From assembly GCA_024679065.1 (NCBI GenBank), contig JAGIQG010000005.1, positions 51,894,001-51,958,000 of the forward strand: a DNA stretch of 64,000 nt, written 5' to 3'. The notes under the pieces are model-generated. The model was not told the origin of the DNA and searched no databases. It saw nothing but the letters and a program-made list of their open reading frames with translations. The DNA is from Sphyrna mokarran. Taxonomy: Eukaryota. The position numbers and the translations under genes were made by a program. Shown piece by piece: positions 1,881 to 61,967 of the stretch; within the stretch, counting starts at the first letter, position 1; each line of letters starts with the position of its first letter.

Positions 1881-2180
1881 AGGTGGCGGCAGGGTAGCAC
1901 AATGAGTTTGAATCCTGGCTTGGGTCATTGTCTGTGTGGAGTTTGCACATTCTCCCACGTCTCCGTGAGTTTCCCCTGGGTGCTCCGTTTTTTTTCCCCA
2001 CAGTCCAAAGATGTATGGGTTAGGTTGATTGGCCATGTTAAATTGCCCCTTAGTGTCAAGTGAACCAGCTGTGATAAGTACATGGTGTTGCAGCAATAGG
2101 GCCTAGATGGGATTATGGTCAGTGCAGACTTGATGGGCCAAATGGCCTCCTTCTGCACTGTACTGATTTTATGATTCTAA
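1881..2180 (+). mobile_element. HE1-like V-SINE with CR1-type tail
   Basis: tRNA-like head; V-core CTGTGTGGAGTTTGCACATTCTCCC...CCACAGTCCAAAGATG; tail GATGGGCCAAATGGCCTCCTTCTGCACTGT...ATGATTCTA; TSD GCAAA at 1876-1880 and 2181-2185. Confidence 0.9.
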
Positions 2181-2432
2181 GCAAACTTACTAATCCTACT
2201 CCCTACATAAGTCATCAATGTCATTGACTTAATAATAGATCCTTTGGTTCGCTTTTGGGCACTGGCTTCCAATCACTAAAGCAGCCTTCTATCATCATCC
2301 TCTTTCCCACAACTGAGCTAATTTTGAATTCACTTTATCAAATGACTCTGCATCCCATGTGAACTTACTTTCTTTACAAGTCTTTTATGTGGGAATTTGT
2401 CAAAGGCTTTGCTGAAATTCATATAAACTACA

Positions 2433-8707: not shown

Positions 8708-8815
8708 TTCTTTATTTATTTGTTCATCACAAGTAGGCTCACGTTAACACTGGAATGAAGTTACTCCAATGCCGGGTCTGGTACACTGAGGGAGAATTTA
8801 GCATGGCCAGTGCAT
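8708..8815 (-). mobile_element. V-SINE 3' fragment with the alternative (Rex-like) tail
   Basis: Reverse complement reads AGTAACTTCATTCCAGTGTTAACGTGAGCCTACTTGTGATG...AATAAA. Confidence 0.75.
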
Positions 8816-9764
8816 CTATTTAATGGCTTTGTTATGGAAGCACACAGGCTTTGTACATAGTTTCAGGACTGTCTGTGTTCAGAAACTTATAGGGTTGGAT
8901 TTTGCAGTTGTAATGATGATCAAATTGTACGCATAGAGGATAGAGTGAAATTCTGATCTTTATTCCACTCTCTGTAAAATGATTAAAAAGCAGAATAGTT
9001 TCCCAGTTGGATGAAGACAAGTCTAGTGCATGTAGGACAGGGAAATCACCGAAAATGACGTGGGGTCAACTTCCTGGAGCAGTTTCTTAGTCCAGTAGGG
9101 CCCCCCCCCCAGCCCTCACCCCCGCCTGCCCCAAGGTGTGGCAGCAAAGCAATAGAGCTGACTGGGAAGAAAAAATTTAGAGCTTTTTAAATGTGAATTC
9201 CTTCTTTCCTAACAGCATACACTTGCACATTGTGCCTATCAGGGTCACCTAGTCAAGTGAACAGTGGGCAGAGCTTCTTCTGTGAAACTTGCCGGAAAGA
9301 GCTCCAGCCATGACCATGGAGAGACTACTGTTTCAAAGCACTTTGGGTCTCAGAGAGTGCTATCACTGCTTGACAGCTGATTGGCAATTTCTTGGAAAAA
9401 ACGCCCGCCCAGCTCTTTGCTCACCTTGTACTTCTTGGCTGCCAGTCTTCATCACAGAATGGGAGCAACTTTTACAACTCCACCTCCTATGCTGAGAGCT
9501 GTGAACTAATGCCACACTACACCATAAACTCCAGCAACAATAGAAACAATAGCATCAGCTGCTTTCTTCTTGACCACATACCCGTCATGATTCAGATGGG
9601 ATAGGCACTGGGATACCCCAATACACAAAATGGACAGGCAGAGGTTTTAGCTCTCCTGACATACTTAAGCACTACAGCCTCAGGAGACTCAAGCTTTCAT
9701 GATTGATCTTCTGGGGAAAGACCTCCTTCCCAGTAAAACAGGTGGCATGCATTGCTACTATGCC

Positions 9765-10045
9765 ATTAGCACTGCTGCCCCACAGTGTCAGAGACCCTGG
9801 TTCGATTTCAACATTGAGTCGCTGTCTCTGTGTTGAGTTTGCACATTCTTCCAGTGTCTGCATGGGTTTCCTCCAGGTGCTATGGTTTGCTCCCACTGTC
9901 TAAAGATGTGCTGATTAGGTGGATTGGCCATTCTAAATTGTCATTTAGAGTTCCGTGTTAGGGGGTAAATGCCTGCTCTTGTGGGAATAGGGCTCTTTTG
10001 AAGAGTCAGTGCAGATTCAGTGGGCTGTATGGCCTCCTTCTGCAT
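9765..10045 (+). mobile_element. HE1-like V-SINE with CR1-type tail
   Basis: TTAGCACTGCTGCCCCACAG, B-box GGTTCGATT, V-core, tail TGGCCTCCTTCTGCATTGTAGGGTTTCTAT. Confidence 0.88.
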
Positions 10046-10811
10046 TGTAGGGTTTCTATAATTCTAATGGCTGAGAGAGTGCTTGTCAATGACCTCTCAA
10101 TGGCCATGGCTGGAGCTCTTTCCAATGTATCTTCCTGCTGTGCACCACTTTGATGATCGCGATAAAGACCAAAAGCCCCCAACCACCTCATCCACCATTC
10201 AAAATATATGGGTCAGTGGCTTTCCATGGAAATTGCTAATGATGTTTTCTCTCAACTGAAGGGTTTCAATACCACCTGCACTGACACTCATGGGTTAATC
10301 TTTCAAGACGAAGTTGCCGGCAGAGAGCCTCAACTGCAAACAACACACATTAGAAATTTAAATGTACAATGATCGAACCATTCTGGTCAGAGAATCAGGG
10401 ACAGTACACTCCTGAAATCACAAATTGTGCTCCTTATCAGTAAGACTTCCTTTCACAGCACCGACTGCCACAATGACCCCATCAGATACATCTCACTTCA
10501 TTGAATATATTTGGTAAGTTGTTCTCTAATGGGTAAATTGTGTTGTATTTTGTTAGCTTGGGAACGTTTAACACATTTGTCTAAAGTTCTTCTGTTTTAA
10601 CTGAGCATTATCCCATTGATTTTAAATGATGAAGCCATATCACATTAACATGTGAAGTACACATACGATATTGCATGGTTACATTTTATGCCTGGTAGCT
10701 ACGTGCAAGAATGATGTAAAAGCCATTTTGGGACTTCTGCAGGATTTTCTGCTCCTGTTTTTGGAGGGTTTGGGAGCAGAAAATCCTGCCAGAGGATCCC
10801 AAAATAATTCA

Positions 10812-16618: not shown

Positions 16619-16925
16619 GGAGTGGCATGGTGATACAGTGGTTAGCATTGCTGCCTCACAATGCCAGGTAACTGAGTTCAATTCCAGCTTGGGTCACTGT
16701 CTGTGCAGAATCCGTATGTTTTCCCTGTATCTGTGTGGGTTTTCTTCGGGTGCTCTCGTTTCCTTCCACAGTCCAAAAGACATGCTGGTTGGGTGCATTG
16801 GCCATACTAAATTCTCTCTCAGTGTACCCAAACAGGTGCCAGAGTGTGGAGACTAGAGGATTTTCACAGTAACTTCACTGCAGTGTTAAAGTAAGCTACT
16901 TCTGGCACTAATAAATAAACTTTAA
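16619..16925 (+). mobile_element. Full-length V-SINE with the alternative (Rex-like) tail
   Basis: HE1-type head and V-core, then ACTAGAGGATTTTCACAGTAACTTCACTGCAGTGTTAAAGTAAGCTACTTCTGGCACTAATAAATAAAC. Confidence 0.88.
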
Positions 16926-17149
16926 CACTTTGTTTGCATGCTAACCATCAGACAAACATGTTTCCATTTATTTATTTTCCTGTCTATAATCACAGCAATG
17001 TATGTTTTCAACCATTCATACCATTTCTTTGCTGGATCCATCGATTTCCCACTTAAGTTACAACAGGAAAGCAGGACAGTTTCTGTGGAATTCTAAAACC
17101 AATGGAAAGATTTTCTCATTTTCTCTTACAACACGTGCTTCTACAAAAC

Positions 17150-19245: not shown

Positions 19246-19529
19246 TTTCCAAATAGAAATGGAAGTTGTCACGATGCAGGAGGAGGATCTCCTCTGTGTA
19301 CTTGCTGTATTGAAATGATGAGCATGGTATTCAAAATAGATTTGAGATTTTGTTGAATTAAAACAGCTTTGAATAAATGTTCATCTTTGCTGCCTGCTTA
19401 GTAATCTGACAGACCGGAGCAATGGCTCATTCCACAGGTTTTGTAACATGTGATGATCTGTTCCCTCAGGTTATTGCCCATGCACTGGAGATAAAAGTTT
19501 GTCGCTAAATTTCTACACCAGGAGTTTTC

Positions 19530-19840
19530 ATAAAATCTCTACAGTGCAGAAGGAGGCCATTTGGCCCATCAAGTCTGCACTGACCACAATCCTACCCAGA
19601 CTCTATCCCTGTCACTCTATGTATTTACTCTGCTAGTTCCCTTGACACTACAGAGCAATTTAGCATGGTCAATCAACATAACCTACACATCAACATAACC
19701 CATAGGAAACTGGAACACCCAGAGGAAACTCATGCAGCCACAAAGAAGACGTGCAAACTCCACACAGACAGTCACCAAGGCTAAAATTGAACCCAGGTCC
19801 CTGCTGTCTTGAGACAGCAGTGCTAGCCACTATGCCAACA
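19530..19840 (-). mobile_element. HE1-like V-SINE
   Basis: TACAGTGCAGAAGGAGGCCATTTGGCCCATC...GCAAACTCCACACAGACAG...CAGCAGTGCTAGCCAC. Confidence 0.88.
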
Positions 19841-28564: not shown

Positions 28565-28902
28565 TTATTCATGGAACATCACTGGCTGACCGGTATTCAT
28601 TGCCCATCCCTAATTATGTAAGGGCAGTTGAGAGTCATTGCTGTGGCTCTCAGGTCACATGTAGGCCAGACCAGACAAGGATGGCAGATTTCCTTCCCTA
28701 AAGGGCAATAGTGAACCAAATGTGTTTTTTTGACAATTCACAATGGTTTCATGGTTATCAGTAGATCCGTAATTCCAGATATTTTTTATTGATTCAAATT
28801 TTGCTACCTGCTGTGCCAGGATTCAAACCCGGGTCCCCAGAAATTAGCTGAGTTTGTAGATTAATAGTCTCGTGATAATACCAGAAGGCCATCACTTCCC
28901 CT
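28565..28902 (-). mobile_element. tRNA-headed SINE (third family) with Zenon-like LINE tail
   Basis: GATGGCAGATTTCCTTCCCTAAAGGGCAATAGTGAACC core; B-box reverse complement GGATTCAAACC; homologous copies at 46545, 49455 and 51573. Confidence 0.85.
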
Positions 28903-36500: not shown

Positions 36501-37529
36501 AAGTTCTTTGTTTTTCTGTTTCAAGATTTTATTGGAGCAATTTGTTCCTGCCCATTCCAATCCAAAAATTTCCTACCGTGGAGATAATCAGCCATTTAAC
36601 TTAATGTCAGTTTGTTCACCCTAGTTTCAATCCAACTAACATTGATGTTGCATCAATTAAGCTGATAATCTTTTTTTTGTCTTATGGAAGCAAGACGTTG
36701 ATACCAATATACATGGAGTCACAACTAACAAATTACATTACTTGGTTTTCAAGCAGATCACTATTTTACTTTGCAAATGCATAATTTGTTCTCATTGTAC
36801 CACTTACCCTATGTTCCTGTAACAGTATCATCTTCTTGTACAGTTTTCTTCTTAAATGTCCAGGTTTGTTGCTCCATGTTTCCTATCTGTAATATAAAAT
36901 AGAATTGTAAGAATTATTTAATGAAGAATGAATATTATATTGAAGGAATCAATTGACAGAGTTGCTAGCACAATGGGCTGAATCTTGACAGAGTGACTGC
37001 ATAGGTCAGAAAAGCATTGATGGAAGCGGGATGGGGGAATACAGATTCTGTCAGGAAATGTAAATGTTAGGCTTCCCTATACAACAACTACTTTTATTTT
37101 ACCTTCACTAGACTTCCCTCCTTTTGCTTTGCTCTCTGCTGTGTTTATGCACCCAAATGTTTCTTCAGCTTTTCTCATTCCAGTATGCTACTTCATATAT
37201 AATCTGACTAGTTTCTGGCTTCAGATTATAGACTTATATTGCTGATGCTCTCTAAAGTAATCACGTTACCGTACTAGATAGTTTATCACTCAGAGAGAAA
37301 TTGAGGAGTTCTGTAACTCCTTGTAGGAGTATTATGTGAATGCTGTTCTGAAAAATATGGATAAAGGGATGAGCTACTAGACAGAAAAGCCCAGGCTAAA
37401 TTTAATCCAGAACAGCACCTCTGGTGTGAAGAGATGTGACAGCCCTTCAACACCTGGAAACTAGATAGGATTGAAATTAATCATCAAGGATAAAATCTTT
37501 CATTTTGTTCACACATGAAGGTTACAATT

Positions 37530-37830
37530 AAAGTTTATTTATTAGTCACAAATAGGCTTACATTAACACTGCAATGGAGTCACTGTAAAAAGCCCCCAGT
37601 CGCCACACCTCAGCACTTGTTGGAGTACATTGAGGGAGAATTTAGCATGACCAATGTGCCTAACTATACATCTTTCAGACTATGGGAAGAAACTGGAGTA
37701 CCTGGAGGAAACCCATACAGACACAGGGAGAATGTGCAGACTCCACACTGACAGTGAACTAAGCTGGGAATCAAACCTGGGTTCCTGACACTGTGAGACA
37801 GCAGTGCTAACCATTGCATCAACGTGCCGT
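37530..37830 (-). mobile_element. Full-length V-SINE with the alternative (Rex-like) tail
   Basis: AAGTTTATTTATTAGTCACAAATAGGCTTACATTAACACTGCAATG...CTCCACACTGACAGTG...GCAGTGCTAACCA. Confidence 0.88.
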
Positions 37831-42400: not shown

Positions 42401-42597
42401 ATATAGTAGAGTTAGAAAACCAAATCATTAAAGCATAAAATTGTCAAACAAGCCCACAGGCACCTCACTAATTACATCTGCCATTATCTGACTTCCCTAA
42501 AGCAAGCTCTGCAATGTTTCTCGCTCCTTGTCCAAAGACAAATCAAACAAAATTTCAGAACAAATCTTACATTATTCATCCTAACACAAATGCACTC

Positions 42598-43840
42598 TGA
42601 TTGGATTTATTATTGTTACATGTATTAACATACAGTGAAAAGTATCTTTTTTGTGCTATGCAGACAAAACACACCATTCATAGAGAAGGAAATGAGAGAG
42701 CACAGAACGTAGTGTTACAGGCATAGCAAGGATGTAGAGAAAGATCAACTTATTCAAAAGTCTGATGGCAGCAGAGAAGAAGCTGTTCTTGAGTTGATTG
42801 GTAAATGGCCTCAGACGTTTGTATCTTTTTCCCGAAGGAAAAGGGTGGAAGAGAGAATGTCCAGAGTGCATAAGGCCTTAATTATGCTGGCTGCTTTGCC
42901 GAGCCAGAGGTAACTATAGACAGAGTCAATGGATGGGAGGCTGGTTTGTGTGGTGGTCTGAGCTTCATTCATGATTTTTTGTACTTTCTTGGGAGCTTGG
43001 GCAGAGCAGAAGCCATACCAAGCTGTGATACAACCAGAAAGAATGCTTTCTATAGTGCATCTATAAATGTTGGTGGAAGTTATAGCAGACATGCTAAATT
43101 CCCTTAGTCTTTTGAGAAAGTCGAGGCATTGGTGAGTTTTCTTAATTATAGTGTTGGCAGGGGGGGCCAGTACAAGTTGTTGGTGATCCAAACACCTAAA
43201 AACCTGAAGTTCTCAACCATTTCTAGTTCATCTTCATTGATGTTTTTATGATGCTTTGGGAAATTGATGACAATCTCCTTCACTTTTCTGATATAGGGGG
43301 AGAGATTATTGCACTAATTTACCAGATTCTCTATCTCATTCTTATACTCTGACGCATTATTGTTTGAGATCCGATCCACTATAGTGGAGTTGAAGGGGAA
43401 TTTAGCCACACAGTCATAGGTGTATAAGGAATATGGTAGGGAGCTGAGAACAGAGCCTTGTAGAACACCAGTGTTAAGGATAATCGTGGAACAGGTGCTA
43501 TTGCCTATCCTTACTGATTGTGGTCTGTGGGTTAGGAAGTTCGACATCCAGTCACAGAGAGAGCAGCCAAGCCCAAGGAGTTTGGAGATGAGTTTCGTAA
43601 GAATAATGGTGCTGAAGGTTGAGCTGTAGTCGATAAATGGGAACATCATATAGGTGTCCTTGTTATGTAGTTGTTCCAGTGTTGAGTGTAGGGCCAGGGA
43701 GATGGCATTTGCTGTGGATCTGTTGCAACAGTAGGTGAACTCTACTGGATCCAGGCAATCCAGAAAGCTGGAATTGATTCATGCCATGACTAATCTTTTT
43801 ACGCACTTTATGATGATGGATGTCAGAGCCACCAAATGAT
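42598..43840 (-). mobile_element. Rex1/Babar-clade LINE, 5'-truncated
   Basis: [79 protein letters not shown]...LKNSFF. Confidence 0.9.
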
Positions 43841-46544: not shown

Positions 46545-46905
46545 GTTCTGGTGGCATAGTGGTAGTTTCACTGGACTAGTCATCCAGAAACCCAGGGTAA
46601 TGCTCTGGGCACAAGCAGATGATGAAATCCTGAATTCAATAATAATCTGGAGTTAAAAGCCTTATGATGACCAAGAAAAGATTGCTAATTGCTGTAAAAA
46701 CCCATCTAATTCATTAATGATCTTTAGGGAAGGAAATTTACCATCCTTCGCTGCTCCGGCCTGTGCATGACTCCAGACCCACAGCAGTGTAGTTGACTGT
46801 TAAATGCTTTCTTACATGACCTAGCAAGCCACTTAGTTCAAGAGTAATTTAGGATGGACAATAAATGTTGGCGCAGTCAGTGGCACTCACATCCCAAGAA
46901 TGATT
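46545..46905 (+). mobile_element. tRNA-headed SINE (third family)
   Basis: GGTGGCATAGTGGTAG head; TTTAGGGAAGGAAAT core; tail TAGGATGGACAATAAATGTTGGC...CACATCCCAAGAATGA. Confidence 0.85.
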
Positions 46906-49454: not shown

Positions 49455-49770
49455 CAATGGCCTTATGGTATCATCATTTGATTACTAATCCAAAAACTCA
49501 GCTAATGTTGTGGGGACTCATGGCAGATGTGGAATTTGAATTCAATGAAAAAAATCTAAAATTAAGAATTTCCTGATGACCATGAAACCTTTGTGGATTG
49601 CCAAAAAATCCCATCCAGTTCACTAATGTTCTTTAGTGAAGGAAATCTGTCATCCTTACGTGGTCTGACCTACATGTGCCTCCAGAGCCACAGCAATGTA
49701 ATTGACTCCCAAGAGCATTGAGTGCTGGCCAACCAGTGATGCCCATGTACCATGAGTGAATAAAAAATGC
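49455..49770 (+). mobile_element. tRNA-headed SINE (third family)
   Basis: ATGGCCTTATGGTATCATC...AACTCAGCTAATGTT...GAAGGAAATCTG...GATGCCCATGTACCATGAGTGAATAAAAAA. Confidence 0.85.
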
Positions 49771-51572: not shown

Positions 51573-51882
51573 ATTCATTTGTGGGATATGGGCATTGCTG
51601 CCTGGCCAGCATTTGTTGCTCATCTCAAATAGCCCGAGGCAGTTGTAAGTCAACCACATTTCTGTGGTGCTAGAGTCACATGTTGGCCAGACCGGATAAT
51701 GAGGCAGATTTCTTTCCCTCAAGGACATTAGTGAACCAGATGAGTTTTTCCTGCAATCAACGATGGTTTCATGGTCATCAGTAGATTCTTAACTCCAGAT
51801 TTTTTTTATTCAATTCAAATACCACCATCTGACGTGAAGAATTTTTAACCTGGTCCCCAGAACATTAGCTGAGTTTCTTCCC
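51573..51882 (-). mobile_element. tRNA-headed SINE (third family), head partly deleted
   Basis: GGCAGATTTCTTTCCCTCAAGGACATTAGTGAACCAGATG...GTCCCCAGAACATTAGCTGAGTTTCT. Confidence 0.85.
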
Positions 51883-52060: not shown

Positions 52061-52404
52061 TCAAGCTGGAGATCCACCACGGGGCAAGTTCCTGTCTGTC
52101 CAGCCTTTGCCTTTCGGCATTCCCGCATGTCCCAGCCCTTGTTTTTCAGAGCTCCCTTGGTGTTCTTAGCTGAGTGTCCTAGGGTTTGAAGTATTTTACT
52201 TCGAAAAAATCAGAATGATGCAGAATGAATGAAGGTGATTTTGCTGGATTTTTGAAAAAATTATCAAGAGGGGCTCCCTTCCTTGCTCTTTCTTATAGCC
52301 CTGCAACATTTCCTCTCCACCCCATTCAAGTACTTACGCACTTTACTGTCGAAAGTTATTCTTGTATCTGCTACCACCATCCTTTCACGCAATTCATTAC
52401 AGCT

Positions 52405-52660
52405 AGCACAGTAATTAGCAGTGCCGTGGACCTGGGTTCAATTCCCAGTTTGGGTCACTGTCTGTGTGGAGTTTGCACATTCTCCCCGTGTCAACGTGGG
52501 TTTCCTCCAGGTGCTCAGATTACTTCACACACTCTGAGAGACATGCTGGTTTGGTGCATTGACCCGAACAGGCGCCGGAGTGTGGCAACTAGGGGAAATG
52601 TCACAGTAATGTCATTGCAGTGTTAATGAAAGACTTACTTGTGAATAATAAATAAACTTT
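52405..52660 (+). mobile_element. V-SINE with the alternative (Rex-like) tail
   Basis: V-core, then CCCGAACAGGCGCCGGAGTGTGGCAACTAGGGGAAATGTCACAGTAATG...TTACTTGTGAATAATAAATAAAC. Confidence 0.88.
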
Positions 52661-53064
52661 ACTTTTTCTAACAGCCTGTTGCATGGAAAATTCTAATTCT
52701 GTCATGTCTATTTTTTTTAACCACTTATTTTACATCTCTGCCTTTAATTGCTGACCCTCTGCCACTGAAAAACATTTCTTATTTACTCTGTTAAAGCCCC
52801 TCATCATTTTGAATACTGTATTAAGCTCCTTCCTATTCAAAATCTTTGACTTCTTGTTGAGCAAACCATTTTTGAGAATTTGAAGCTAATTTATTTTGAT
52901 TAATTCTGAGAAATGTAAACAAAGAATACCTGATAAAACCTTTTCTGTTTAGAATTGACAGAATTACCACCAAGATGATTATGACCAACAGCAATTCACT
53001 GAGGAATATGTGTGTGGACCCAACATAAGTCAATTCTTATTTCTACATGGCTCAACCTGATAAT

Positions 53065-53880
53065 GGCAACACAGTGGCATAGTGGTTATAGAGTCATACT
53101 CATAGAAGTTTACAGCATGGAAACAGGCCCTTCAGCCCAACTCGTCCATGCTGATGTTTTTTTTAAAAAACCCATAATTTAATCCCAATTGCCTGCATTT
53201 GGTCCATATTCCTCTATACCCATCATACCCATGTAATTGTCTAAATGCTTTTTAAAAGGCAAAATTGTATCCGCTTCTACTACTATCTCTGACAACTTGT
53301 TCCAGACACTGATCACCCTCTGTGTGAAAAAATTGCCCCTCTGGACACTGTTCTATCACTCGCCTCTCACCTTAAACCTCTGCCCTCTAGTTTTAGACTC
53401 CCCTATCTTTGGGAAAAGATATTGACTATCTATCTGATCTTTGCCCCTCTATAAGATCACTCCTCAGCTTCCTATGCTCCAGAGAGAAAAGTCCCAGTCT
53501 ATCCAGCCTCTCCTTATAACTCAATCTATGAAGAGCCAGTAGCACAAGAGGTTAGCACTGCTGCCTCACAGTGTGAGAGAGCCAGGTTCAATTCCAACCT
53601 CAAGTCACTATCTGTGTGGCGTTTGTACATTTCTCCTCGTGTCAGCGTGGGTTTCCTCCAAGTGCTGCAGTTTCTCCTTCGCAGTTCAAAGATTTGCTGG
53701 TTAGTTTTGATTGGCCACGTTAAAATATTCCCTTAATGTCCCAAGGTGTGCAGGTTAAAAGGGATTAAATACGTGCAGTTACAAGGATAGGGTCTGGGTA
53801 AGATGTTCAACTGGAGAGTCGGTGCAGACTTGATGAGCAGAATGACCTGCTTCTTCGTGATAGATCTTCTATGATTTTAT
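53065..53880 (+). mobile_element. HE1-like V-SINE whose head is split by a CR1
   Basis: Head GGCAACACAGTGGCATAGTGGTTA at 53065-53088 resumes at 53548 as GAGGTTAGCACTGCTGCCTCACAG. Confidence 0.85.
53089..53545 (-). mobile_element. CR1 3' end, same subfamily as 54780-56020
   Basis: TAGAGTCATA...TACAGCATGGAAACAGGCCCTTCAGCCCAAC; flanking duplication GTGGTTA/GAGGTTA. Confidence 0.88.
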
Positions 53881-53939
53881 GTTAATTGTACAGTATCTAT
53901 CCTGACTAATGGAAGAGCAATTGGTACAGTTAATCCTCA

Positions 53940-56189: not shown

Positions 56190-56340
56190 CTTTGATTTAA
56201 TTTGATTTATTATTGTCACATGTCTTCGCATACAATGAAAAGTATTGTTTCTTGCACGCTATATAAACAAAACATACCATTCATGAAAAAGGAAACAAGA
56301 AAGTGCAGAATGTAGCGAACAAGAGTAAAAGATAGAATTA
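56190..56340 (-). mobile_element. Rex1/Babar 3' tail fragment
   Basis: GATTTATTATTGTCACATG...TGAAAAGTATTG...AAAACATACCATTCAT, homologous to 42598-42720. Confidence 0.8.
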
Positions 56341-56664
56341 GAAGGTATGCGAGGCACAGCTTGCAAGAAGTTGCCTCACCCCGGCGCCATCTTGAAAAAA
56401 AAACATTTTGGCCTTCTTCCACATTAAGCTCCCTAACAGTGTAGCGACAATTGTACCCTTTGGCAATTACACTGTTTAGCCATTGGCACCGTCAAACACA
56501 GGTCATGATGACATAGGCTGAACTTCCAAAAGATGATAAATGGACACAGCTGAAACAGTTTGGTATGGGAAAGCAGGTGGTCACAATGTTGAGCTTTCTG
56601 AGAATAAACTTGTTTAATGTAAAAGATAAGCTTCAGACTTATTCCTTCACTATATTCTTTTTTT

Positions 56665-59640: not shown

Positions 59641-59869
59641 ATTCTCACTCCGTGATCATTTATTAAAAACTGAGGTAAAATATTTATCATCCCTGATATT
59701 TCATTTTCCACAATTCAATTTCCCCCTTTCAATTATGGTATGTCTTAACTCCCTTTTTGATTATTCCTTTATTTGTAATATGTTTTTAATAACTAGTATT
59801 AAATTAGTATTTCCATTTATTGTCTGCTGTCTATTTTCATATTTCTTACTTTCTTTCTTAATCTTCCTC

Positions 59870-60010
59870 CTAGAGTCCAAGAGACGTGCTGGGTAGATGC
59901 TAAATTCTCCCTCAATGTATCCAAACAGGCGCTGGTGACTCAGAGATTTTTACAATAACCACACTGCACATTAAGGTAAGTCTACTTGTGAAACTAATAA
60001 ATAAATTTAA
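59870..60010 (+). mobile_element. V-SINE 3' half with the alternative tail
   Basis: GTCCAAGAGACGTGCTGG...TGCTAAATTCTCCCTCA...CTACTTGTGAAACTAATAAATAAA. Confidence 0.8.
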
Positions 60011-61967
60011 CTTCATTAACTTTAAACTTAAAATTTCTGTTCCATCTCTCAACTGCACCTTTTGACCCCATGATTTTTTTTATTCATTCAAGAAATGTGA
60101 GCATCACTGGCTAAGGCAGCATTTATATTCTTTCGTATTGGTGTATTGCATTTTATTATGCATCTCCCATTCAAATTTAAGTTTAGTTTTAATCTGCCTG
60201 TTTATCCATGGGAGTACGCCTTTACCTCCTGCCCCTTTTCCATTTGAGGAATATTTTAATTTTGTAATCAATCCATGGCATATTTAAAGATTCCCACTTC
60301 TGATCTGGCATTCTCATCACAAAATTTCCCTATGTCTTTTTCAATTCAGAAAGATTATCTTTGACTCTTTGCTTTCCTTCTCTATTTTCACATTGGTTGC
60401 CATCATAGCCCTAGGGTGCTCTTCAATCTCAGTCAAAAAATGGTCCCGAACATCCCAACGGCGATAAATGACTTGCTAGACACTTGTTTCACTAAGATAG
60501 CAATCATCCTAAATATCACTGCTTCATTCTGCTTCCCAAGTGCTCCAACCATCTTTTTCTCAGGAAAATTAAGAATTATTGGATCAAAAGCGTGCAAGCA
60601 CCAATTGCACAGGAGCGTCATAATACAGACTTATGTATATTTTAATTTAGCCAATGTTCATTTCCGGAAGCACCAAAAACAGCTAAGCAGTGACATAGCC
60701 ATGTTGGCATTCACTATATGTGAACTTGTGGCATGGGATATCCTAACTCAAAAATAGTAAGCGTAATGCTAATTCCACATCCAAAAACTGGAGAGCCGAG
60801 AATTCAATTTCTACGCTAGCGTAAATACTTATTCAAAATTCATTTTTAAAGTAATTTAAATCATCAAATCTACACCTTTTTATAACTAAATAGCTTGCAA
60901 TGGTCATAATACTGTTATATATCTGTTTGATAACATGATAGTTACGTGGCATAAATAAACCCATGAAAATTATGGTCTGATAACAGTTTTAAATATATTC
61001 TAAGACTTCTGTGCATTGCCAAACAGGTTAAATTGTTGACTGTTTTGATGGTATAAGGAAAGTTATCTAGTATAAATTTATCAAAAATCCCTTCACTGCA
61101 CAAATAATTATTTGAGTGACAGACAGACAGAGTCAGTTCCTCTAATCCCTATATGTAGCTTAGAGGAACCACAAGGAACTCAGTAATCCCCTTCTTTATG
61201 ACTTTCAACTGTTAAAGGGTTCAGAAACTATTAATCTTTGCTTGTCATTATCTTTCTGATATCAACTGTATGTAACATAGAGGCCAATTTCTTTATAAAA
61301 ACGTGAATGTGTAATTTTCTTTACACCCTGAACAAAAGAAGCACATTCTGGGCTCTATGAATTAAAGTAAATGCAATACAAATTAATATTCCAGTACAAT
61401 ATCTGCAATGTTGTTCAATGGAAAACTCTTGACAGACTCAGTATAATAACTCATCCATAAATGAAAAATGCTGTGTATTTAAACTTACACTACTTTTCAT
61501 CCTGTTGTCCTGCTTCTCTATCAATGTGCTCCACCATATAAATTCTTCTTTCTAACAGGAATTGCGTGTGGGCTCTCGAGCCGCTTTTGGAACTTTACAT
61601 TACCGTTCCACCACTGTACTGTTTGTCCCTCAGCTCTTTTTTAGTGAAATATGTATAGATGTTATCCTTTCATTTTAAATTATTTGCAATAATCACCAAT
61701 AAATCCAGTAGCAAATTCAGGAAAAACATCTTTTCTGAGAAAGTGTGAAAACATAGAGCCAGCCGCCACAAGGAATAGTTGAAGTAAACAGATGCCTTAA
61801 CGGGAAACCTTGATAGACATTGAAACATAGAACTTGAACCAGAACTTGGCCATTCAGCCCTTTGAGCCTTCGCTGCCACTCATTTCTTCTTGAAATCAGA
61901 CAACTTGAAATCAGACAATATACAAGAGTAAAGGAACAGAAGGATATTTTAATTGTATGAGGTAAAA

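Follow-up and report, generated by a model that had tools for sequence, protein, structure and literature searches.

A 64,000-nt stretch of the Sphyrna mokarran genome (GCA_024679065.1, contig JAGIQG010000005.1, positions 51,894,001 to 51,958,000; hereafter the window) was found to contain V-SINEs with two different 3' tails, together with Rex1/Babar LINE sequences (Table 1). The first-pass annotation of the window had assigned a Rex-type tail to five V-SINE copies. This tail, which marks the form here called SINE-R, was present in 5/5, with the copies at 8711 and 59863 being 5'-truncated. The CR1-type tail assigned to four other copies was recovered for those at 1903, 9765, and 19524, whereas "53065" corresponded to a head fragment only, the CR1-type tail sitting at 53538-53886. 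The two Rex ends reported for the minus strand were confirmed at 42597 and 56196. Another dispersed repeat of ~250 bp, unrelated to the V-SINEs, occurred in four copies (28636-28892, 46552-46798, 49457-49707, and 51648-51876).

Table 1. V-SINE and Rex1 features of the window, with the parts of the focal SINE-R copy.
Feature	Position	Strand	Basis or remark
SINE-R, focal copy, full-length, long subfamily A	16621..16931	+	profile match E 2.6e-96, model positions 4-316
tRNA-like head of focal copy	16621..16700	+	sequence; A-box-like motif 16639-16647, B-box-like motif 16676-16685
V domain (limits approximate) and linker common with CR1-tailed sister	16700..16825	+	consensus alignment of both forms
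20-nt piece resembling nt 8-27 of Rex1 5' end	16835..16854	+	18/20 at family level with decayed CpG counted
Short G-rich spacer	16855..16862	+	resembles linker after common region in CR1-tailed form
Rex1-type 3' hairpin, outer 8-bp bulged stem and inner predicted second helix	16861..16908	+	3' arm mutated in focal copy
AATAAA and short terminal repeat	16910..16931	+	repeat unit unlike Rex1 unit
SINE-R, 5'-truncated	8711..8818	-	sequence profile
SINE-R, full-length	37521..37829	-	sequence profile
SINE-R subfamily B, 25-nt deletion at V domain end	52402..52670	+	sequence profile
SINE-R, 5'-truncated	59863..60011	+	sequence profile
CR1-tailed V-SINE, HE1-like	1903..2186	+	sequence profile
CR1-tailed V-SINE	9765..10070	+	sequence profile
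CR1-tailed V-SINE	19524..19840	-	sequence profile
CR1-tailed V-SINE	53538..53886	+	reversed CR1 piece separates head fragment near 53066-53090
Rex1/Babar LINE, 5'-truncated, broken	42597..43830	-	RT, PF09004 region, 3' UTR hairpin; upstream limit approximate
Internally deleted Rex1, ~200 bp	56196..56396	-	~85 nt 5' end joined to ~110 nt 3' end

The A-box-like and B-box-like motifs of the focal head were assigned by comparison with the consensus of these boxes, and an Rfam search with the SINE-R head gave no match at E≤1. In the passages of the PMC6887750 supplement that were consulted, frog V-SINE heads resembled the SINE-R head, and the frog V-SINE consensus was nearly letter-for-letter like the SINE-R core in an unscored comparison by eye. 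With a V domain of ~80 bp following its head, SINE-R is by sequence a V-SINE. Both SINE forms aligned over ~205 nt (head, V domain, and short linker) and then diverged, with the breakpoint of the focal copy at 16825; beyond it, the SINE-R and CR1-type tails were without similarity (1798/5000 shuffles scored as high). Nine core columns differed between the two forms, thus indicating separate lineages rather than one-off chimeras. Subfamily B, which lacks the last part of the V domain through the 25-nt deletion and has small changes in its tail, accounted for 7/40 near-full SINE-R copies.

The CR1-tailed sister ends like the CR1-type LINEs of the window, whose CR1 label we presume from their motifs. 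This form fits the HE1 V-SINE/HER1 LINE pair of sharks and rays, a tRNA head plus V domain, as given in the part of PMC3747384 that was available. A shark or relative as host agrees with this HE1-like SINE and with a 67% match to a Mustelus protein. The SINE-R tail did not share the CR1-type HER1 3' end by which HE1 is recognized. Abundance was estimated from a sample of large contigs, 60 pieces of 10 kb placed at round coordinates, in which we counted 53 Rex-type SINE tails, 76 SINEs with core and CR1-type tail, 25 Rex1 3' ends, and one complete short Rex1. Scaled to the genome of 2.77 Gb, these counts correspond to ~245,000 copies of SINE-R (183,000-320,000), ~351,000 copies of the CR1-tailed V-SINE (277,000-440,000), and ~116,000 Rex1 3' ends (75,000-171,000).

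The LINE from which the SINE-R tail appears to derive was assigned, on its RT sequence, to the Rex1 clade. Its translations follow REX-11_DR and REX-14/15_XT in the portion of the RTclass1 set consulted (PMC3708506 supplement), as judged by eye without a tree. RVT_1 was detected in the window copy (E 1.5e-7); PF09004 exceeded the cut-off elsewhere in the genome and fell below it in the window copy (E 0.008). An endonuclease-like translation was also found in Rex1, with homologues that carry PF00078, PF09004, and in some cases PF03372. As read from these sequences, APE endonuclease, RT, and PF09004 region are combined in one ORF2, the arrangement characteristic of Rex1/Babar. A genome search for PF09004 yielded 38,224 candidates, of which 150 were scored and 30 loci taken. 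Every visible end but one among these loci had the same 3' tail. The exception, L071:1500-2100, belongs to another Rex1 family, less common, whose 3' tail and terminal repeat are different. Walking up the ORF reached the true LINE start in 4/30 loci, which shared the same 85 nt, followed by a 5' UTR toward the ORF, and had unrelated flanks. At L159, L164, L165, and L175, a Rex1 5' region ~850 nt long precedes the endonuclease and starts with a YY1-like motif.

The Rex1 copy at 56196-56396, initially regarded as a 5'-truncated LINE, instead proved to have a 5' end of Rex1 fused to a 3' end, and many such copies of ~200 bp occur in the genome. That the short copies consist of the two Rex1 ends follows from the four LINE loci, whose first 85 nt are the same. 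Searching for the Rex1 start with a 25-nt pattern gave 161 exact matches (reversed control, 0). Among the first 30 of these matches, 27 were joined to a 3' end within ~700 bp, giving elements of ~150-680 bp; the other three were 5' scraps, and none ran on into the ORF. The 27 joined copies fell into 18 junction classes (6-nt tolerance), the largest with three members, and the lengths of their 5' and 3' arms were correlated (Spearman 0.58, p 0.0014, and still 0.58 once the two longest 3' arms were dropped). Elements with only the two ends far outnumbered full-length copies in the sample (window 56196-56396; L031-L060; L272-L300). By its sequence, the short Rex1 is a bipartite non-autonomous LINE, to which one LINE contributes both its 5' and its 3' end but no ORF. 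That junctions mostly differ from copy to copy points to recurrent de novo formation or to a large number of masters. Bases just upstream of Rex1 5' ends were often T-rich at L272-L301, which may belong to the element start or reflect a target preference.

Comparison of the SINE-R tail with the Rex1 3' end gave a score reached by 1/5000 shuffles, as opposed to 370/5000 for the CR1-type tail used as control. Across 17 stem positions, the SINE-R and Rex1 families differ at two, which pair with each other; this is the only compensated stem pair, with a chance of ~0.02-0.03. The proposed compensatory change from T-A to A-T holds at the family level, with T-A in 120/146 Rex ends and A-T outside the six commonest states. 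In 146 distinct Rex1 ends, loop columns were conserved at 50, 50, and 79%, and stem columns at 79-94%. Since three loop columns vary at family level while stem columns hold, we infer that loop variation is tolerated in the Rex1 hairpin.

Details of the hairpin described by the first-pass annotation required revision. The Rex string quoted as window sequence is the family majority, and not the literal letters of either window copy. Folding into an 8-bp bulged stem applies to the family consensus but not to the individual window Rex copies or the focal SINE, which carry stem-breaking mutations and form no hairpin alone (folding z +1.2, +0.3, and +1.05). The supposedly longer SINE loop is a 26-nt insert, predicted to form a second helix rather than a loop. 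Consensus folding against shuffles gave weak signals for both the SINE hairpin (z -0.6, 119/500) and the Rex hairpin (z -2.0, 19/500), and outer-stem pair probabilities in longer context were 0.26-0.55. Covariation across genomic copies was left unused because dead copies decay neutrally.

The insert, the compensated pair, and the terminal repeat unit of SINE-R are all unlike the dominant Rex1 family, and the L071 family demonstrates that a Rex1 with another tail exists. These features could be explained if a sister Rex1 family with the long hairpin and the terminal repeat of the SINE, which has since become rare or died out, had been both donor and mobilizer. A LINE with the long hairpin was, however, absent from 141 partly redundant Rex1 ORF ends, 116 of which had the canonical tail; four SINE-profile matches downstream of these ORF ends were neighboring SINEs or cross-matches to the canonical hairpin. 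Nor was such a LINE present among 58 tail matches in 664 kb, of which eight lacked a core directly upstream and had unrelated flanks, or among the best 30 tail matches, where 28 had the core and the other two began late in it. Moreover, ~245,000 copies call for a partner that was abundant and equally old, a role for which the dominant family is suited. We consider a sister family quite unlikely. A LINE clade fitting the tail better than Rex1 was likewise not encountered, in that no other LINE with the SINE-R tail was found in the sampled ends. A SINE subfamily with the canonical Rex1 hairpin was considered and rejected: 14 of 18 matches were ordinary mutated SINE-R, the remainder comprising one chimera (L252), one plain Rex1 end, and one unrelated sequence, with L257 left out.

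Six nucleotides before the hairpin, the SINE-R tail matches Rex1 nt 8-27 at 17/20 positions by plain majority, or 18/20 if CpG with typical TG/CA decay is counted. This match was noticed before being tested. When the SINE-R tail was compared with a two-strand Rex1 target of 7.4 kb that lacked the 3' end, its best match lay at nt 8-27 on the sense strand; shuffles of the whole tail reached this score in 11/1500 cases and those of the 47-nt linker in 1/1500. Both stretches of Rex1 similarity in the tail keep the order and orientation that they have in Rex1. The 20-nt piece begins just inside the Rex1 start motif, which is not intact in the SINE. An ordinary tail swap, in which only the 3' hairpin is Rex1-derived and the 20-nt match is due to chance, would agree with the shortness of the match, its weaker standing without CpG restoration (24/1500), the likeness of the following spacer to the old SINE linker, and the lack of a head-less mini family. 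It is nevertheless unlikely, given that the best match in 7.4 kb falls in the first 30 nt, in sense and directly before the hairpin, that the CR1-type tail has no such match to the Rex1 5' end (354/5000), and that Rex1 makes 5'+3' joins routinely. The SINE-R tail is therefore likely to be bipartite, combining a Rex1 5' end and 3' end; its place among SINEs with a 5' LINE piece upstream of the 3' end is proposed with moderate confidence because the 5' piece is short (20 nt).

A head-less mini-element was also sought as a missing link. Of three pattern matches, two were whole SINEs. The one copy left, L237:1500-1595 (same place as L239), has an intact Rex1 start motif running into a SINE-R tail and may be a truncated SINE whose flank looks like Rex1 by chance; with ~1 such copy expected by chance (rough estimate), it does not count as support. 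At L252:1285-1565, a chimera was observed in which SINE-R head, core, and 20-mer are joined to a canonical Rex1 3' tail. It was not matched by a second among 13 further matches and is thus a singleton, without genome-wide control; its structure fits the use of SINE-R RNA during Rex1 priming.

Ages were estimated as K2P divergence from consensus, with CpG left out. Median K2P was 0.112 for the SINE-R tail (n=54) and 0.106 for the Rex1 3' UTR (n=25; p 0.36), and for the cores it was 0.132 in SINE-R (n=40) and 0.138 in the CR1-tailed form (n=67; p 0.47). An automatic scan detected SINE-R inside the Rex1 endonuclease region at L175; conversely, short Rex1 elements inside SINE-R were spotted by eye at L041 and L045 and checked with profiles. 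Matching divergences and nesting in both directions bear out the presumed overlap of SINE and Rex activity and indicate joint activity of Rex1 and the two SINE forms. Rex1 pieces were also seen inserted within CR1-tailed V-SINEs (L008, L044, and L201). Target-site duplications of at least 7 nt were found in 0/10 short Rex1, 1/15 SINE-R, and 0/17 CR1-tailed copies and did not separate the forms. Together with the common age profile of the two SINE forms, this lack of separation would be expected if SINE-R were copied by CR1 or L2 machinery and its Rex1 likeness were a relic or convergence. Such copying is very unlikely in view of the unrelated tails and of the Rex1 stem register, which was kept through a double change.

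A Rex1 origin of the SINE-R tail is well supported at the level of sequence. In our view, SINE-R is a V-SINE subfamily whose tail probably came from a template switch to Rex1 RNA, with the Rex1 protein as the likely agent of its later copying. The earlier proposal of a LINE switch from CR1 to Rex1/Babar stands as regards the tail match, the compensated pair, and the overlap in activity. It does not stand as a replacement: activity of the CR1-tailed form was contemporaneous, and the change is therefore a branching. Nor did that proposal include the Rex1 5' piece of the tail. Its direction is inferred, the CR1 tail being taken as ancestral because HE1/HER1 is given for sharks and rays in the available part of PMC3747384. 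In the proposed mechanism, the Rex1 RT would often quit the 3' UTR early to continue close to the 5' end of the Rex1 RNA, and by switching to V-SINE RNA it would yield a chimera with both Rex1 ends. SINE-R would have captured an extreme 5'+3' product, in one step or two. Because the spacer resembles the old SINE linker, the tail is compatible with either number of captures; the resemblance itself would fit two separate ones. Rex1 ORF2 would read the stem and tolerate loop changes, whereby the SINE could carry its insert. In zebrafish L2, the loop is read specifically, according to the consulted part of PMC4176376, and if Rex1 behaves likewise, the loop insert could block recognition.

For the short-element consensus, a 5'-3' duplex was predicted with pair probabilities near 0.99 (74/2000 shuffles), starting at nt 27, where the Rex1 piece of SINE-R ends. 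Such a duplex of Rex1 RNA is considered hypothetical because two controls gave no support: in a sliding-window control on nine copies, the 3' UTR did not stand out as duplex partner, and the helix was retained in 1/21 decayed copies. We tentatively raise, as a possibility that we do not favor, a panhandle in which the ends of Rex1 RNA are zipped and the RT jumps at matching distances, the SINE-R tail being the shortest product, frozen, with its join where the predicted duplex has its base.

RSg-1, the partner LINE of salmonid SINEs, belongs to the Rex1 clade. In the sections of PMC3747384 that were consulted, the salmonid SINEs SlmI, HpaI, and OS-SINE1 have a 3' end in common with RSg-1, and the sea anemone SINE2-5_NV has one in common with the Rex1-clade LINE Rex1-24_NV, as does SINE-R with Rex1. 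These SINEs are not V-SINEs and no 5' piece is given for them there. The V-SINE partners named in the same source are HER1, CR1/ZfL3, LfR1, and L2, and its table has no V-SINE with a Rex1 partner, unlike SINE-R. In structure, SINE-R is closest to the arrangement of bipartite RTE/Vingi-tailed SINEs (Bov-tA, AfroSINE, CoeSINE4/5, WALLSI2, and hagfish SINE1-1_EBu; excerpts of PMC5786205 and PMC7245038), in which the head and body, likewise derived from RNA, precede a 5' piece and the 3' end of a LINE. It differs from them in its Rex1 donor, a 5' piece of only 20 nt, and a V-domain body. The short Rex1 resembles the short 5'+3' elements known as bipartite LINEs or SIDEs, from RTE, Ingi, Vingi, and R2 (PMC5786205, in part) and the CR1-derived Persaeus (PMC6740152, in part), but belongs to the Rex1 clade, and most of its copies have their own junction.

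As far as the available text of PMC5786205 goes, LINE 5' regions in the middle of SINEs come only from RTE and Vingi, and ORF-less bipartite LINEs only from RTE, Ingi, Vingi, and R2; the term "Rex" was absent from it. The consulted part of PMC6740152 adds CR1 to the clades with bipartite LINEs. SINE-R tail motifs were absent from the PMC6887750 supplement passages, and a search of the accessible PMC4824008 supplement gave no match. In the literature searched, mostly titles and beginnings of abstracts and including PMC5499810, PMC3531059, and PMC11203168, neither a Rex1-tailed V-SINE nor a bipartite Rex1 was encountered. The SINE-R family may already be contained in the original HE1/V-SINE papers, Repbase, Dfam, or SINEBase.

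Tail swaps as such are known; here, both states are present in one genome, in ~245,000 and ~350,000 copies and with a mapped breakpoint, so that the two-tailed V-SINE lends itself as a natural test of LINE partner change in a SINE. With the Rex1 5' piece, the hypothesis of Kojima (2018) that internally deleted LINEs feed SINE bodies reaches beyond RTE and Vingi. The many junctions and correlated arms bear on why, as Kojima asked, bipartite elements arise in some LINE clades only, and the 5'+3' junctions offer a testable handle on Rex1 RNA recognition, for which no mechanistic study was found in the literature searched. If the panhandle reading were true, Rex1 would be a third LINE clade with its 5' end built into a SINE, and bipartite elements would form afresh at insertion.
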